Shown here in pieces: positions 21,850-39,785 of a DNA stretch of 43,359 nt. The stretch is from an uncultured Gammaproteobacteria bacterium (GTDB lineage: Bacteria; Patescibacteriota; Patescibacteriia; UBA2591; UBA6264). Location of the stretch: NCBI GenBank assembly GCA_964566895.1, contig CAZMJP010000002.1, forward strand, positions 1 through 43,359. Direction: 5' to 3'. The translations under genes and the position numbers were made by a program. The notes beneath the pieces are model-generated. The model was not told where the DNA came from, searched no databases, and saw only the letters and a list, made by a program, of their open reading frames with translations. The number at the start of each line of letters is the position of its first letter. Position 1 is the stretch's first letter.

Positions 21850-23541
21850 CTATTCTCTAGTTACTCTTAGCACCTCTTCCAAGGTGGTGATTCCATTAAA
21901 AACTTTTTCTATCCCATCCTCTAACATCGTTGTCATCCCATTCTTAATCGCCACTTTCATCAACTGTTCGCTTGAAGAACGTCCAATGATCAAACTCCTA
22001 ATATCTTCACTCATTTCTAAAACCTCAAAAACCCCAATCCGACCGACATAGCCCGTGCGAGCGCAAACTTTGCAACCAAAACCCCGATAAAGAATAATTT
22101 TATTTAAATCCGTCTGCCCATTAGCTTTTAAAATCTCTATTAAACGCGGCTCTTTTTGAATAACTGCTTTTTCCTCATTAGTTAGTTTACAAGAGTACCG
22201 ACACTTCGGACAAATTTTTCTGACTAACCTCTGAGCAATGGCGACATTAACGGTCGAAGCGACCAAAAACGGCTGAACCCCCATATCTAATAATCTCGGC
22301 AAGGTTGTCGCCGCATCGTTGGTATGAAGAGTCGATAAAACTAAATGTCCGGTCAAAGCCGAATTGACGGCGATACCGGCTGTTTCTTTGTCTCTGATTT
22401 CTCCGACCATAATAATATCCGGGTCCTGACGAACAATGGCTCTCAACCCTTTGGCAAAAGTCAGATTGGTTCTGGGATTAACTTGAATCTGGCTTACTCC
22501 CTCTATATCATACTCAACCGGGTCTTCAATGGTTGAGATATGAACGTCGCGAGTATTTAAAATCTTTAAAACAGCGTAAAGGGTGGTCGTCTTCCCGCTG
22601 CCGGTCGGACCAGTAACTAAAATCATTCCATGAGGACGCCCAACAGCCCCTTTAATCTTTTCTAAATCAGAAGATAATAAACCTAAATCTGTCAAACTAA
22701 ACTGCCGGCTTTTAACTGACAAAAGCCGCATTACCACATTCTCCCCTTCAACCACCGGGATTATTGAAACCCTGACGTCAACCAGTCCGTCTTTAACGTT
22801 AAAACGAAATTTGCCGTCCTGAGCTGCCCGATGCTCATCGGTTCTCATTCTGGATAAAATTTTAATTCTGGTGATAACAGAATCCAATAAATCTTTTGGC
22901 AAAGATAAAACATCGTGCATGACGCCATCTATTCTAAAACGGACCACAATCTTGTTGATATACGGCTCAACATGAATATCCGACGCCTTATTTTGATAAC
23001 CGTACATCAAAATGGTATCAACCATTTTTACCATAATTTCGTCTCTTTGGGTTCCGCTTAGAGTTCTATTTTTGAATTGCTTTAAAATTTTATCAAATTC
23101 CTGCCTTAAAGAGGGTTGATAACTGAAAAGAGCCTCGCGTAAATCTAATTTGGTGATGAAATAAGGGAAAATTTTCTCCCCGGTCCGTTTCTCTATAAAA
23201 TGCTGTATCTCCAAATCGTCCGGATTCCTCATTCCGACTTTTATCCCCTCTTTAGACCTGGCAAAGGCAATTACGCCTTTGGATTCAGAGACTAACTCGG
23301 GAATTAAATTAAGCGTTTCCTCGTCTATCTTCTCTTGTTTAAGATTAACATAACGCCAACCCGCGTCTTCGGCAATTAATCTCCCCAATTGGTCATCTTT
23401 AATGACATCCCCTTCTATTAAAACGTCAGCCAAATTTTTCCCTTGCTTCTCGGCTTTTTTAACATTTGACTCAAAATCGTCCTCGCTGATATGACCGGGC
23501 TGAACCAAAAGTTCTTTTAGTTTTTTAACTGCTATTTGCAT
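21850..23541 (-). CDS. pilB: Type IV pilus assembly ATPase PilB (GspE family)
   Basis: Walker A (GPTGSGKTTTL), Asp box, Walker B (IIMVGEIRD) and His box (TGHLVLSTLHTND). The tetracysteine motif (CPKC...CKVC) and an N-terminal GspE-N domain are also present. Confidence 0.93.
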   Translation of the reverse strand: MQIAVKKLKELLVQPGHISEDDFESNVKKAEKQGKNLADVLIEGDVIKDDQLGRLIAEDAGWRYVNLKQEKIDEETLNLIPELVSESKGVIAFARSKEGIKVGMRNPDDLEIQHFIEKRTGEKIFPYFITKLDLREALFSYQPSLRQEFDKILKQFKNRTLSGTQRDEIMVKMVDTILMYGYQNKASDIHVEPYINKIVVRFRIDGVMHDVLSLPKDLLDSVITRIKILSRMRTDEHRAAQDGKFRFNVKDGLVDVRVSIIPVVEGENVVMRLLSVKSRQFSLTDLGLLSSDLEKIKGAVGRPHGMILVTGPTGSGKTTTLYAVLKILNTRDVHISTIEDPVEYDIEGVSQIQVNPRTNLTFAKGLRAIVRQDPDIIMVGEIRDKETAGIAVNSALTGHLVLSTLHTNDAATTLPRLLDMGVQPFLVASTVNVAIAQRLVRKICPKCRYSCKLTNEEKAVIQKEPRLIEILKANGQTDLNKIILYRGFGCKVCARTGYVGRIGVFEVLEMSEDIRSLIIGRSSSEQLMKVAIKNGMTTMLEDGIEKVFNGITTLEEVLRVTRE

Positions 23542-35178: not shown

Positions 35179-36117
35179 TTACGGCTGAAGAATATCCTCG
35201 GTTCGACCGTTGACTGAAATAACAACGTTGTCAACTGTAGAAAGTTGTTTTAAGGTCTCTGTTACTTGAGCTCTGATTGCCGCCACTCGGCAAGAACCAC
35301 CGACTTGAAACTCCAATTGTTCGTCAAAATCAATCTCGGCCGTTCCGCCGCCAGTTGACGGATTAACGGACAACCTCTGGACCCTCACTCCCGAATTTAT
35401 GTTCGAAACAAAACCTTGATTAATTTCTTCCTCTGTCGCTCCTCGCAAAAGAGCTTCTATGGCCGCCCGGGCAACCGCCGAGGTTCTAAAAACTCGTCTC
35501 TCAACGGCTATAGTGCGGGAACAATCAAAATACGGTTCATTGACAAAACGCGAGTCGCTCAAAAAAATCTTTACGGTCATAAACTCCGGCGAAATTTCCG
35601 TCACCTCTTTGAAATAAACCGGGACAACTAATTCGTCCGCCTGCTCCGGCAATCCTGAAGGATTATCTTTTTCTAAAATCAATTTGCCTTCTGAGGTGGA
35701 CGGAACGGCAAAAGGAAGGGCGGCCTTAAATGGCACAAATTTCTCCGTCATCCAATCTTCTAAGGCCTGAGCTGTTGTTATGCCCAAGAGAAAACCATTG
35801 CCGTCAAAAAGTTTAATCGGAAAACTGGCTTCGAAAAACCAGAACCCCCTTGCCTCCCCTTTAATAAAAAGCGGACTTTCAATAATTTGATTAAGTTGAG
35901 GGCTGTCTATCTTTATCAGGTCGGTTTTTCCCGAATTTATTGTTTCTTCTCCGCCGCAGGGTTCAGATGGCATTGGCGCGGAAGGAACTCCATGCTTAAC
36001 CCACTGCCCCTGCCGGCAAATCCAATTGTCTTCCGGACCGCCGATAACAAATCTAATAAAAAACCATCCGGTCAAGACGGCGATTATTATAATAAAAATT
36101 TTTATATTTTTAGTCAT
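35179..36117 (-). CDS. Membrane-anchored protein with Gmad2 Ig-like and GerMN-like domains
   Basis: N-terminal transmembrane helix. The segment PLFIKGEARGFWFFEASFPIKLFDGNG is typical of the Gmad2 domain. The C-terminal segment (VARAAIEALLRG...VDNVVISVNG) resembles GerMN. Confidence 0.55.
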   Translation of the reverse strand: MTKNIKIFIIIIAVLTGWFFIRFVIGGPEDNWICRQGQWVKHGVPSAPMPSEPCGGEETINSGKTDLIKIDSPQLNQIIESPLFIKGEARGFWFFEASFPIKLFDGNGFLLGITTAQALEDWMTEKFVPFKAALPFAVPSTSEGKLILEKDNPSGLPEQADELVVPVYFKEVTEISPEFMTVKIFLSDSRFVNEPYFDCSRTIAVERRVFRTSAVARAAIEALLRGATEEEINQGFVSNINSGVRVQRLSVNPSTGGGTAEIDFDEQLEFQVGGSCRVAAIRAQVTETLKQLSTVDNVVISVNGRTEDILQP

Positions 36118-36287
36118 TGATAAAAGTTCTCCAATTACTCACTCCTCATTTCCTTTAAAAATCTTCTGTAAAATTCTACTCTCTAATTTATTCCATTATA
36201 CAAAAATTCTTTCGGACTAGCAAGAATCCAAAAGAATTGAAACTTAATTGGTCAACAACTAAAACGGTTAACGGGTTATTATTAAAA

Positions 36288-36310
36288 AAGTCCGGCCAAC
36301 GGACTTTTCT
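36288..36310 (-). terminator. Intrinsic terminator of the three-gene operon
   Basis: Minus strand reads AAGTCCG-TTGGC-CGGACTT followed by TTTTAATAAT. It starts about 25 nt after the stop of the KamA-like gene. Confidence 0.7.
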
Positions 36311-36333: not shown

Positions 36334-37263
36334 CTAATACATTCGAGTACTTTTATTTTTAAAATCATTAAAGGATGAATAAGTAAATTTCCAAAAATTA
36401 AGGGGAATAGGAATCTTACCCGAACCATTTGGGGCGTCAACCACATGAAAAGGAAAGGCAATACCCGAGATATTTTTTCTAAGTTTGGTCATAATTTCAA
36501 TCTCTTTCTTGATTGGAACAATAAAATGTTCAACCCCTTTAGTCAAGTCGCAGTGAAAAATATAATAAGGTCTAACGCCAAGTTCGACAAGTTTAGTGAA
36601 CAAGGTCTCCAAAACTTTATAAGAATCATTAATTCCTTTTAAAAAAGTCGACTGAGAAAACAAGGGTATCCCGGTTTTTCTCAAAGCATTTACCGCCTTA
36701 ACGGTTTCGGGAGTTAATTCGTCGGGATGTTCAAAATGGATGGAAAAATAAAGCGTTTTCTTTTTATTAATTCTCGTTAAGGTTTCCAAAATCCTTTTAG
36801 TCAAAAGCTGGGGGTCGGATACCGGAACCCGGCTGTGAATTCTAATTATTTTTATCTGTCTTAATTTTGAAAATTTATTTAAAGCATAAATTAAAAGCCT
36901 CGGAACGGTCAAAGGGTCGCCTCCAGAAAAGACAACTTCATTGATTTTCGGTTTGGATTCGATGTAATTTATCATTTTCTCAATATCTCTTAAAGAAAGT
37001 TCTCCTTTTTTAAGATCGGAAACCTCGCGACGTCTGGTGCAAAATCGGCAAAAAGAAGCGCAATTTAAAGTCAACTCAATCAAAACTCTTCGGGAATATT
37101 TATGAACTAACCCTTTGACTTTTTTATGTTTATCTTCCAAAAGGGGGTCGATTAACGCCCGTTTGGAAAAAACCTTTTCCTCTGGAGAAAAATAAAACTG
37201 TTTTTTGATCGCCGATGATTTCTTGGCTAACTGTCTTAAATGACTGCTAATTTTAACCAACAT
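36334..37263 (-). CDS. KamA-family radical SAM aminomutase, short form (lysine 2,3-aminomutase / EpmB-like)
   Basis: CASFCRFC (CxxxCxxC) cluster in the context LTLNCASFCRFCTRRR, with a preceding DPL..E..H...GLVHKYSRRVL segment. VFSGGDPL and VRPYYIFHCD are present. DAPNGSGKIP carries the Lys expected to bind PLP. The 309-aa protein lacks the C-terminal domain of full-length KamA. Confidence 0.82.
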   Translation of the reverse strand: MLVKISSHLRQLAKKSSAIKKQFYFSPEEKVFSKRALIDPLLEDKHKKVKGLVHKYSRRVLIELTLNCASFCRFCTRRREVSDLKKGELSLRDIEKMINYIESKPKINEVVFSGGDPLTVPRLLIYALNKFSKLRQIKIIRIHSRVPVSDPQLLTKRILETLTRINKKKTLYFSIHFEHPDELTPETVKAVNALRKTGIPLFSQSTFLKGINDSYKVLETLFTKLVELGVRPYYIFHCDLTKGVEHFIVPIKKEIEIMTKLRKNISGIAFPFHVVDAPNGSGKIPIPLNFWKFTYSSFNDFKNKSTRMY

Positions 37264-38278
37264 AGATTTTATAACGCCGACAAGCGGCTTTAATTATTTT
37301 ATCTAACATTTCTCTAAAGTTATAACCGGCGGCTCTCGCGACTAAAGGAAAGCGAGAATTTTCTTTCGGGTCGGGGATGATTCCCGGTATTTGGTTTACC
37401 TCTAAAACATTTGGTTTATTTGTCTTGTCTAATCTTAAATCTATCCGACACCAATCTAAAATTCCCAGAACCCTTTTGGTCTTTAAACAAATCTCTTCTA
37501 TTTCTCTCCTTAGAGTTTTTTCAATTTTTGCCGGGCAAATTACGGTCTCTATCTCGCTCTCTGGATTATCAACCAGCCACTTTACTTCATATGAGTCTAT
37601 CGGAACCAAATTTTTAGGCAGTGACGAAAAGTTCAGCTCCGCCGGAGGCAAAATCTCCACCGGACTATTCCCAATTAAACCGACGGTGAATTCTCTTCCT
37701 GATAAAAATTCTTCAACTAACGCCGGTTGATTGAAATTTTTTATCACTTCTTTCACTTTCTTTCTTAATTTTTTTTTGGTCTTTACTAAGGAATCCTGAA
37801 AAATCCCCTTTGACGAACCCTCATTATTCGGTTTAACGAGTAAGGGAAACTTTAGCTCTCCTTTTAATTTTTCCTCGCCGGTTTCGAAAATCTGAAATTT
37901 AGCGGTGGGAATATTATGCCAAGAAAGCGCTTTTTTGGTTAAAGCCTTATTTAAACAAATTGCCTGAGTCAGGGGTTTGGACCCAAGATAAGGAATTTCC
38001 AACATTTCAAGTATCGCCGGAATCTGAGCCTCTCTGTCTCGGCCATGAATTCCTTCGGCAATGTTAAAGACAAGATCAATTTTTGACTTCAATTTTTTAA
38101 ATTTCAAATAAGCGTTTTCATCGGCTTCAATTAAAAAAACCTTGTGACCAAGCTTTCTTAATGATCTAGCAATTCCCCCGATTGTTTTAGGCGTATCAAA
38201 TTCCGCTTCCTCAATGGATTTTCTATTTTTCAAAGACGGTTCTACGTGACGGACGTTAAAAGTCAGGGCGATTTTCAT
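37253..38278 (-). CDS. ATP-grasp ligase of the D-alanine--D-alanine ligase family; substrate unknown
   Basis: Motifs HGRDREAQIPAILEMLEIPYLGS, FPLLVKPNNEGSSKGI, LVEEFLSGREFTVGLIG and CRIDLRLD...VLEVNQIPG. The N-terminus (KIALTFNV...EFDTPKTIGGIARSLRKLGHKV) differs from canonical Ddl. Confidence 0.78.
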   Translation of the reverse strand: MKIALTFNVRHVEPSLKNRKSIEEAEFDTPKTIGGIARSLRKLGHKVFLIEADENAYLKFKKLKSKIDLVFNIAEGIHGRDREAQIPAILEMLEIPYLGSKPLTQAICLNKALTKKALSWHNIPTAKFQIFETGEEKLKGELKFPLLVKPNNEGSSKGIFQDSLVKTKKKLRKKVKEVIKNFNQPALVEEFLSGREFTVGLIGNSPVEILPPAELNFSSLPKNLVPIDSYEVKWLVDNPESEIETVICPAKIEKTLRREIEEICLKTKRVLGILDWCRIDLRLDKTNKPNVLEVNQIPGIIPDPKENSRFPLVARAAGYNFREMLDKIIKAACRRYKIYVG

Positions 38279-38279
38279 C

Positions 38280-39785
38280 TTAGATCTTTAACTCTTCCTT
38301 ATAAATTTTTAAAACTTTGTCTTTTAATTCTTCCGGTATAGTTTCGGCCGAGTGAATGCCAAAATATTTTTTTATTAATTCCTTCTCTCTTTTTTTTGCC
38401 TCTTTTAAATACAATTTCTTGAATAAATCAATTAATTCGCCTTTATATCCATTTTGGTAAGCTAAGTAAAAAGCTAATAATTGTTCATCCCTCCCTAAAA
38501 GAGAAACATCGTAACCATAGTTACTATCCTTGTCGCAACCGAAGAGGGCGTATTTTTGTCTATACTTCAGTTTCAACATATTGTTCCTTAATTCTACTTT
38601 TTTGGGATTGATATTGTTCGCTAAAAGAAAAATAAAAATTCTCGCGCATTTTGAGCAATTTCCGCACCAACGACTCTTCCTTTTTATTATTTTATATTCA
38701 TTAAAAGAAGAACAAGACATCTGATATTTGGCAATTTCAGGATAGCGATGGTGTAAAATTTTAATAATGGCAAGTTCGTGAAGCGGCTCAATTAAAGAAC
38801 CGACTTTAAGATTTTCCATCCCCAAAAGTTGAACGATTTTTCCTAATTTCTGAATCCACTCCACGCTTTGTTCATAGACGGGATTACACCAAAAACCTTC
38901 CTTATCCAAAAATTTATCATTGCAAGACTGTTCATTGGAGAAGAAAAGATAGTTAGTCATTCTTGCAAAAGCAATCGGCAGAACGATTAACCCAAATTGG
39001 GTTAGTTGCATCTCCCAACCATACCAGCCATCGTCAGACGGATTTTTATACGGCTCGCGCAAGCTGCCGGCCTCATTTTTAATAAATAAAATTTTTTGTT
39101 TGAATTCTTCAAAAAATTTTTCCGCTAATTTTTCCTTGAGATGATCCTCGGTTTGAGAAAGAGGCTCCTTTACATACGCCGGCATTGTTTTAATTCCGAT
39201 TTCTTTGCATAAACTATAAGTAAGCAAACTGTCTTTCCCAAAAGTAAAAAATATAAGAGCGGTATTCCTAATCTTTCTTAATGGTAGGGTAAAAGGAACG
39301 GAAGCTTCTTTCCTATTAAAATGATATTTAGTTTGAGATAATTTTTCTAAATACTTTGAAGCCTTCTCGGACTTCATTAGGGCGGTGGCGGGCAAAGAAT
39401 CCCTGAATCCCTCTCCAATCATATCTTTGACTGAAGGTTTTGACATAAGATACCACAAAGAACCAATATCCAAGAGACAAGGCAGGTGCAAGGTTAAAGC
39501 AAAAGTCAAATTCTCTAAAAGAACTTTCTTTAAAAACAAGGGATACTTCCCCCAAATATTTCTGGGATAGACGACGGAAAAATCTTTTTGATTGAAACTA
39601 ATAAGAAATCCTTTCTCTTTAATTTCCGGCTTGATTAAAATCTTTTTCGAAATAAAAAAAGAGTCGCCCTCTTCTTTTTTAGACTCTTTAATTGAAATCT
39701 CCAAAGGTCCGCTCCTACTTGGAGGTTCGTCTTCTTCTTTAGTTATGGTAATAGATGAAGTTTTTGTTTTTTCAAGAGTTTGCAT
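38280..39785 (-). CDS. Uncharacterised 501-aa protein with a PP-loop-like motif and a C-terminal Cys cluster (possible adenine-nucleotide alpha-hydrolase-fold adenylating enzyme)
   Basis: ALIFFTFGKDSLLTY resembles the SGGxDS PP-loop, and RWCGNCSKCARIF resembles the CxxC...C zinc motif of QueC-type PP-loop enzymes. Its stop codon lies 1 nt from the start of the ATP-grasp gene. Confidence 0.6.
   Translation of the reverse strand: MQTLEKTKTSSITITKEEDEPPSRSGPLEISIKESKKEEGDSFFISKKILIKPEIKEKGFLISFNQKDFSVVYPRNIWGKYPLFLKKVLLENLTFALTLHLPCLLDIGSLWYLMSKPSVKDMIGEGFRDSLPATALMKSEKASKYLEKLSQTKYHFNRKEASVPFTLPLRKIRNTALIFFTFGKDSLLTYSLCKEIGIKTMPAYVKEPLSQTEDHLKEKLAEKFFEEFKQKILFIKNEAGSLREPYKNPSDDGWYGWEMQLTQFGLIVLPIAFARMTNYLFFSNEQSCNDKFLDKEGFWCNPVYEQSVEWIQKLGKIVQLLGMENLKVGSLIEPLHELAIIKILHHRYPEIAKYQMSCSSFNEYKIIKRKSRWCGNCSKCARIFIFLLANNINPKKVELRNNMLKLKYRQKYALFGCDKDSNYGYDVSLLGRDEQLLAFYLAYQNGYKGELIDLFKKLYLKEAKKREKELIKKYFGIHSAETIPEELKDKVLKIYKEELKI

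Follow-up and report, generated by a model that had tools for sequence, protein, structure and literature searches.

To our knowledge, MurL is the only studied member of the class of ATP-driven, one-way peptide epimerases, and its mechanism is still unclear. It needs ATP and Mg2+ and releases AMP (PMC5808125, PMC8788868), and it epimerises a terminal Glu from the L to the D form in one direction only (PMC5808125). In two enzymes of the QueC fold, QueC and Cap9, ATP activates a carboxylate, to which NH3 or a protein amine is then added (PMC13279940); QueC itself is recognised by an SGGxDS loop and by a zinc site of the form C(x)8CxxCxxC (PMC13329287). A 2026 survey of the QueC family mentions neither MurL nor the family described here (PMC13329287), and our literature search returned nothing relevant on MurL structure or on modules of KamA and ATP-grasp genes in the Candidate Phyla Radiation (CPR) or the DPANN archaea. 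Here we analyse a gene for a 501-amino acid (aa) protein, hereafter the target, in a 43,359-nucleotide (nt) stretch of DNA from a Patescibacteriota genome (contig CAZMJP010000002.1; the whole stretch is called the window, and it is contig C2 of genome G000). Sequence and structural model together make it very likely that the target is a PP-loop ATP pyrophosphatase of the QueC fold, with a four-Cys knuckle and adenylation chemistry. Judged by alignment and phylogeny, it belongs to an uncharacterised sister family of MurL within the QueC/MurL kind of adenylating enzymes.

What carries this assignment? The open reading frame (ORF) was re-found exactly where the original prediction, made by eye from the DNA, had put it (positions 38280-39785, minus strand), and the statement that no family could be named for it also stood up. 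A Pfam scan returned no family at E values up to 1, PF06508 included; PADLOC gave no match for any of the three proteins of the operon; a search of the sequences of PDB chains found nothing at E values up to 10; and every homologue is labelled "hypothetical protein." The Pfam copy that was scanned seems to be without the MurL families PF26298 and PF26299, since a genuine MurL gave no match there, but in precomputed Pfam annotation, where MurL homologues carry both of these families, none of the 120 listed target homologues has any family. The single NCBIfam match is to MurL (NF041275); it scores 51 bits, where the cutoff is 700, and covers profile positions 118-340 of 447.

The AlphaFold2 model of the target has a predicted local distance difference test score (pLDDT) of 88.4 and a predicted template modelling score of 0.87; it was built from an alignment of 63 family members, from bacteria and archaea, on which all conservation figures below also rest. 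The best Foldseek match of this model is QatC (9y02_B; E = 2e-7, 465 columns), followed by Cap9 (9nto_B; E = 2e-4) and QueC (E = 4e-4) and then by TtuA, YcfA, and NcsA, each of these six a PP-loop ATP pyrophosphatase of the QueC type; ThiI and LarE are among the weaker matches. These matches bear out the earlier suggestion of an N-type PP-loop ATP pyrophosphatase. When the defining features of the QueC family were looked for, the fold match was significant, and both motifs were present only as variants (TFGKDS and C(x)15CxxCxxC). The target resembles QueC (7-cyano-7-deazaguanine synthase, PF06508, PDB 3BL5) in its core fold, in its SGGxDS-type loop ((S/T)FGKDS in the target family), and in having a four-Cys, probably zinc-binding motif after the core, but it is twice as long, has two extra domains, spaces its cysteines differently, and does not match PF06508. 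QatC, from the QatABCD anti-phage system, and Cap9, from the type IV cyclic oligonucleotide-based antiphage signalling system (CBASS), are the best structural matches and share carboxylate activation by ATP; QatC also has the same layout, an N-terminal alpha/beta extension, a QueC core, and C-terminal helices (PMC13279940). The division into N-terminal extension, core, and C-terminal helices is seen in MurL too. However, the two are just 12-15% identical to the target, which has no QatA, QatB, QatD, or CD-NTase (cGAS/DncV-like nucleotidyltransferase) gene as a neighbour; QatC carries C(x)19CGxCxxRR (PMC13329287) in place of C(x)15CxxCxxC, and there is no sign of a 7-deazaguanine substrate for the target. 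A defence system of the QatC/Cap9 type was considered and ruled out, with no PADLOC match and no matching neighbours.

The motifs that the original prediction had picked out are real, and their conservation among the 63 members is far beyond chance. FFTFGKDSL corresponds to residues 179-187 and WYGWEMQLTQFG to residues 254-265. In the PP-loop variant, G183, K184, and S186 are invariant, and D185 and F182 are each conserved at 95%. The MSC...RWCGNCSKCAR segment carries C358, C374, C377, and C380, all four of which are invariant both in the target family and in MurL. Also invariant in the 63 members are E285, which MurL shares, as well as Q306 and S357, while C288 is invariant in the closer subfamily only. 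The cysteines had been likened to those of QueC, aptly so (C(x)15CxxCxxC against C(x)8CxxCxxC; PMC13329287), and the knuckle that they form is probably a zinc site. The description of the N-terminal ~170 aa as charged and helical, on the other hand, was too simple: residues 1-44 are disordered, and residues 45-165 are mixed alpha/beta with conserved residues of their own (Table 1).

How closely is the target related to MurL? BLASTP aligns it with a genuine MurL domain from the same order (locus L091) at 24% identity over 327 aa (E = 8e-11), in a register that places GKDS, NE(Q/H)S, SC, and WCGxCxKCA opposite each other. Compared by hhalign with 24 genuine MurLs, the target family matches at 99.7% probability (E = 2.4e-25) over 307 columns, which take in the core and C-terminal domain and leave out the first ~165 residues; the match begins at about residue 167, and the N-terminal extension domain does not align with that of MurL. 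In the joint alignment, the two families have in common GKDS (MurL has GGKDS at the columns of the target's PP-loop), G256, NExS, G297, S330, E337, SC, WCxxCxKC, and E434. The target and MurL are alike, then, in a homologous PP-loop core, the four-Cys knuckle, and the C-terminal helical domain, and the target too lies beside an amino-acid ligase gene. MurL, which had been offered as a precedent that could not be confirmed by eye, is a relative by NCBIfam (E = 8e-14), BLASTP, and hhalign; the target is not a member of that family, and any epimerisation by it is putative.

The differences are as instructive. With MurL residues numbered as in P0301, the MurL-invariant K266 is replaced by Q306 in the target family (100%) and R293 by E333 (94%); S265 becomes E or D at position 305, H217 becomes W, H262 P, Q263 V, W264 F or Y, G150 F, and F343 R, while K385 and C389 are variable and C79 falls in a gap. 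In a maximum-likelihood tree, 99 family members form one clade apart from MurL, with 100% support by the Shimodaira-Hasegawa-like approximate likelihood ratio test. The target falls below the MurL cutoff, whereas the genuine CPR MurL domain of L091 scores 340 bits over profile positions 6-414, and the most divergent full-length matches in an exhaustive search are not MurL. The target's partner is a Ddl-like ATP-grasp protein, with or without KamA, and not MurD2: it is neither adjacent nor fused to a MurD2-type ligase, and the genome's MurD gene is on another contig, C9, where no MurL-like gene adjoins it. Moreover, the target family is found alongside genuine MurL in some genomes and also in archaea that have no Mur ligases. 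Because of its score, its replaced pocket residues, its own clade, its coexistence with MurL, and its presence in archaea without MurC-F, the target is, as far as sequence can tell, not a MurL. By analogy, it probably shares the ATP half-reaction of MurL, the adenylation of a carboxylate.

Genuine MurL is itself common in the CPR (2786 proteins at <1e-10 among the candidates scored), where it is often fused to a Mur ligase domain and is found in Uhr-, Staskawicz-, Falkow-, Roizman-, and Peregrinibacteria. In the same order as the target, MurL::MurD fusions of 825-876 aa were found at L091:352-2826 (minus strand; G093:C28), L093 (G104), and L094 (G098), and all three genomes are without an Asp/Glu-racemase gene. 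The MurL half of the L091 fusion scores 340 bits on NF041275 and its MurD half 249 bits on TIGR01087, the latter with both MurD2-type residues (PEH, GGQDRGYDF).

How widespread is the target family? It comprises 455 clusters at 50% identity, 199 of them at <1e-10, and all named members are hypothetical proteins. The bacterial carriers are Patescibacteria (Nealson-, Gottesman-, and Roizmanbacteria and Microgenomates), and the archaeal carriers are DPANN (Woese-, Nano-, and Iainarchaeota) and Bathyarchaeia. Five Bathyarchaeia sequences group with the target's bacterial clade at 100% support, and this nesting suggests transfer between the domains. Orthologues in Bathyarchaeia were seen in five or six genomes (L002-L006 and L100:5031-7362) and are 55-60% identical to the bacterial target.

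In the window, the target gene is preceded by a promoter-like site that agrees with the sigma-70 consensus at every position, a single nt lies between its stop codon (TAA) and the start codon (ATG) of the gene for a Ddl-like ATP-grasp, which in turn shares 11 nt with a KamA-like gene, and a terminator-like hairpin follows (Table 1). Because of the perfect promoter, the coupled junctions, and the hairpin, the target, the Ddl-like ATP-grasp, and the KamA-type lysine 2,3-aminomutase are, read from these signals, a three-gene operon, and the target is its first gene, as had been proposed. The closest relatives of the ATP-grasp partner are Ddl and Van ligases only, but it scores below every Ddl cutoff (173 bits with the best NCBIfam Ddl model, against 243). 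It is not the sole Ddl of the genome; a canonical housekeeping Ddl lies on contig C10 (426 bits), and on these scores the housekeeping role was rejected for the ATP-grasp partner. Aligned to Clostridium lysine 2,3-aminomutase (2A5H), the third protein, a radical S-adenosylmethionine (SAM) enzyme, conserves the CxxxCxxC cluster, the pyridoxal phosphate (PLP) lysine Lys337, and both D293 and D330, which bind the epsilon-amine of lysine in the Clostridium enzyme. The equivalog models (AblA, EpmB, and the Glu- and Arg-aminomutases) all stay under their cutoffs. This partner is probably a lysine 2,3-aminomutase, and, given the conserved cluster, PLP lysine, and two Asp residues, beta-lysine would be its likely product.

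All five bacterial contigs in the clade of the target (the window, L001, L097, L098, and L099) keep the trio, with different flanking genes each time, and the trio therefore behaves as a self-contained module. The MurD2/MurL pair, including the MurL::MurD fusions of the CPR, likewise couples an ATP-dependent amino-acid ligase to an enzyme of the MurL superfamily; the target module differs in having a Ddl-family ATP-grasp instead of a Mur ligase, in adding a lysine 2,3-aminomutase, and in being independent of peptidoglycan in archaea. We examined family context in 80 loci from distinct genomes, taking neighbours within 6 kb. A Ddl-like ATP-grasp gene is present in 31 of the 80, often adjacent, and 23 hold two adjacent family paralogues; the fullest clusters, with KamA, one to three ATP-grasp genes, and one or two MurL-like genes, are those of DPANN archaea. 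Beside the family gene, neither a conserved small ORF nor a candidate for a substrate protein turns up repeatedly. The other recurrent neighbours (SecA, SerRS, LysRS, an HD protein, GreA, and a methyltransferase) each occur in at most 16 loci and are taken to be lineage synteny.

Several loci hold further variants of this arrangement. KamA::ATP-grasp fusions of 685-708 aa, with the aminomutase N-terminal, occur in DPANN archaea beside one or two MurL-like genes (L048:45-2138; L049:5750-7876, minus strand; L067:2518-4575) and thereby provide a gene-fusion link between the two partner enzymes. In the Nealsonbacteria locus with the same operon (L001:6742-8052, plus strand), the target orthologue and the ATP-grasp gene are separated by a 436-aa third paralogue of the MurL superfamily; this paralogue scores 113 bits on NF041275 over its C-terminal half only, sits on a very long branch, and is absent from the window. 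Lysyl-tRNA synthetase genes lie within 6 kb in several loci (class II in seven and class I in six; L013, L028, L019, and other Gottesmanbacteria and Microgenomates), which may be lineage synteny but deserves mention given the lysine aminomutase partner.

What might such a module make? We give about an even chance (roughly 0.5) to a complete mechanism in which the operon partners, presumably co-transcribed and translationally coupled with the target, supply the substrate. The KamA-type enzyme would convert L-lysine to beta-lysine, the Ddl-like ATP-grasp would join beta-lysine to a second amino acid to form a small cationic peptide, and the target would use ATP to adenylate the free carboxylate of that peptide, yielding an acyl-adenylate and pyrophosphate. 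The activated residue could then undergo epimerisation at C-alpha and hydrolysis, giving AMP, as with MurL, or be attacked by an amine to form an amide, as with QueC and Cap9. We infer the adenylation from the characterised relatives MurL, QueC, and Cap9, and the beta-lysine-containing substrate from the operon context. Glu, Gln, and Asp stand in the target family where MurL has its basic pocket residues, a basic-to-acidic swap that fits a cationic substrate. The three-gene module recurs in ultrasmall bacteria and archaea, and its product is probably a small, modified peptide that is so far undescribed. Going further, we can tentatively picture a hitherto unrecognised ribosome-independent line, also independent of nonribosomal peptide synthetases, in which the MurL-like enzyme and the Ddl-like ATP-grasp, joined by a lysine 2,3-aminomutase in loci that have one, make small peptides with beta-lysine, D-residues, or both by ligation followed by adenylation and epimerisation or amidation. 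In this possible but doubtful extension, the module would be exchanged among CPR, DPANN, and Bathyarchaeia, its copy number would scale with product length (as loci with two or three ligases and two MurL-like genes might indicate), and its output would be a metabolite or a part of the envelope peculiar to these carriers.

A number of observations weigh against the beta-lysine peptide mechanism. The target family does not retain the candidate catalytic residues of MurL (C79, H217, H262, and C389). The charge-swap argument assumes that the swapped residues line the pocket, and the choice between epimerisation and amide formation as the second half-reaction is not decidable from sequence. Pairing with ATP-grasp or KamA genes, which the original prediction had raised as a check on homologues, holds in five of five loci of the target's clade but not throughout the family: 49 of the 80 loci have no ATP-grasp gene within 6 kb, and just 8 have a KamA-like gene. 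The five sister loci in Bathyarchaeia have neither gene nearby; there the partner is a radical SAM gene of the PA0069/Rv2578c (SplB-like) type. The same-order orthologue in G096 has scpA and scpB on its two sides and neither a ligase nor a radical SAM gene nearby. Context thus varies between clades, and the substrate may therefore differ by clade or not come from the neighbours. Looking at these loci themselves, the family gene of Bathyarchaeia lies mostly 20-40 nt downstream of the SplB-like gene, with an ABC-2 transporter pair upstream, and apart from the G096 gene (L090:1498-2991, minus strand), no further full-length family member occurs in the 60 relatives surveyed.

Could the target nonetheless serve as the MurL of this genome? 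The question arises from gene content. MurC, D, E, and F and a canonical Ddl are all present in this genome of 668 kb, which is 96% complete, but alanine racemase, genuine MurL, class-IV (D-amino-acid) aminotransferases, and the whole Asp/Glu racemase family are missing from it, and the same racemase gap had led to the discovery of MurL (PMC5808125). Its MurD has Glu at the position of E. coli D182, as in MurD2 (PMC8788868), although the signature is mixed, with Lys at the K348 position, as in the canonical D-Glu type. Among 61 relatives, MurI is missing in 6 of 6 genomes with a MurL-superfamily match and in 26 of 55 without one (one-sided Fisher p ~ 0.016, calculated by hand and uncorrected for shared ancestry), and a RodA/FtsW gene lies 1.2 kb downstream. 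Yet about half of the relatives have neither MurI nor a target-family gene, and the racemase gap is therefore typical of the lineage. Family-wide, genuine MurL is also present in 9 of 28 bacterial carriers, a gene of the Asp/Glu-racemase family in 12-13, and at least one of MurI and MurL in 18; on the counts of racemase and MurL genes we rejected a family-wide replacement of MurI. G001, with the same operon, also has a genuine MurL that overlaps a MurD with both MurD2-type residues, and 22 archaeal carriers show at most one weak Mur-ligase-domain match and never a MurC-F set. The protein itself has lost every MurL-invariant basic pocket residue; H217, H262, K266, R293, K385, and C389 are all replaced, its N-terminal domain is unaligned, and it scores 51 bits where 700 are needed. 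The evidence against is the stronger, and we consider this role quite unlikely. The sources of D-Glu and D-Ala in this genome are unexplained by its gene content, and about half of its 60 relatives are likewise without MurI.

The missing alanine racemase, in a genome with Ddl and MurF, would also suit a route that makes D-amino-acid dipeptides without any racemase, such as one with D-Ala for MurF; here the ATP-grasp would join L-amino acids and the target would epimerise the C-terminal one. Ligation before epimerisation mirrors MurD2/MurL (PMC8788868), and the closest relatives of the ATP-grasp are all Ddl/Van ligases. We nevertheless find this distinctly improbable: the canonical Ddl is retained and would still require free D-Ala, D-Ala-D-Ala has two D centres where a C-terminal epimerase provides one, archaeal carriers make no peptidoglycan precursor, and the KamA partner and acidic pocket point to lysine chemistry. 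An acceptor common to bacteria and archaea, such as a translation factor or an envelope protein, would account for the spread over CPR, DPANN, and Bathyarchaeia if the target, like Cap9 and QatC, acted on proteins or ribosomal peptides, adenylating a carboxylate (of a small acid such as beta-lysine or a dipeptide, or of a protein C-terminus) and joining it to a protein amine. QatC, the best whole-length structural match, docks its protein substrate with its N- and C-terminal extensions, and the N-terminus of a protein is where Cap9 attaches its carboxylate (PMC13279940). But the template modelling score with QatC is just 0.42-0.48, the nearest relative by sequence, MurL, acts on a small molecule, there is neither a PADLOC match nor a Qat or CBASS neighbour, and no small ORF or substrate candidate recurs in the 80 loci; protein modification is, on balance, unlikely. 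Very improbable, finally, is a role in sulfur transfer or nucleic-acid modification, as in PP-loop enzymes of the TtuA/NcsA/ThiI type, with the cysteines holding a catalytic iron-sulfur cluster. TtuA, NcsA, ThiI, and LarE are among the weaker fold matches, and two divergent family members weakly match models resembling 3'-phosphoadenosine 5'-phosphosulfate reductase, but those fold matches cover just a core of ~120-220 residues at E values of 1e-3 or worse, the target has no sulfur-carrier or RNA-binding domain, and its four-Cys pattern and position match the structural Zn site of QueC (PMC13329287) and are common to MurL, an enzyme without sulfur chemistry.

The neighbours of the target in the window are Fpg, the ATP-grasp and KamA partners, a protein with Germane and Gmad2 domains, and RodA. 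Genes for the Germane and Gmad2 protein lie at window positions 35179-36117 (minus strand), at L097:2014-2967, and at L098:10065-10847, within about 3 kb of the trio in three of the five bacterial clade members, despite flanks that otherwise differ; in the window, the gene has a promoter-like site of its own (36223-36195). Table 1 collects the coordinates of the features discussed.

Table 1. Positions of the target gene, its parts, and associated features (window coordinates unless a contig is named)
Feature	Position	Strand	Remarks
Target gene, 501-aa MurL-related protein, predicted QueC-fold PP-loop ATP pyrophosphatase	38280..39785	-	ORF; stop codon counted
Residues 1-44, disordered Lys/Glu-rich tail, specific to the bacterial clade	39654..39785	-	pLDDT <50; missing in Bathyarchaeia orthologues
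Residues 45-165, N-terminal alpha/beta extension domain	39291..39653	-	Confident strands and helices; W78 and P117 conserved
Residues 166-392, QueC-type Rossmann-like ATP-pyrophosphatase core	38610..39290	-	Aligns with MurL and with QueC, Cap9, and QatC structures
PP-loop variant F-F-T-F-G-K-D-S-L-L-T, residues 179-189	39219..39251	-	Phe in place of the first Gly of SGGxDS
N-E-Q-S-C motif, residues 284-288	38922..38936	-	N-E-x-S common to MurL
Four-Cys knuckle S357-C358...W373-C374-x2-C377-x-K379-C380-x-R382	38640..38717	-	Probable Zn site
Residues 393-501, C-terminal helical domain	38283..38609	-	Helices at pLDDT >95; aligned to MurL up to ~493
Promoter-like site TTGACA-16 nt-TATAAT	39839-39812	-	Sigma-70 consensus 12/12; 27 nt 5' of the target ATG
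Second gene, 341-aa Ddl-like ATP-grasp ligase	37253..38278	-	PF07478, E = 2e-33
Third gene, 309-aa KamA-family radical SAM/PLP aminomutase	36334..37263	-	TIGR00238, 214.7 bits against a cutoff of 199.2
Terminator-like hairpin AAAAGUCCG-loop-CGGACUUUU, GC-containing, with T-run	36284..36308	-	26 nt past the KamA stop; read directly
Second terminator-like site	36238-36205	-	In addition to the hairpin
MurD of the genome, 444 aa	G000:C9, about 22090-23424	+	NIYREHL (MurD2-like), GGADKGADF (MurD-like)

What do these findings mean for MurL and for the organisms that carry its relatives? They define a large sister family of MurL, 455 clusters in which every member is labelled hypothetical and for which there is no Pfam model. 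In this family, the adenylation core of MurL appears to be kept and the pocket re-lined, with an ATP-grasp ligase and a lysine aminomutase alongside. Comparison of the two families separates putative adenylation residues, which are shared, from those for substrate binding and epimerisation, which differ, and therefore makes the mechanism of MurL more testable. The wide occurrence of genuine MurL in the CPR, often fused to MurD, extends an alternative route to D-Glu beyond the Proteobacteria and Actinobacteria of the 2021 review. The target family, in turn, hints at a route to small peptides, so far undescribed, in CPR and DPANN organisms, whose metabolism is little understood.

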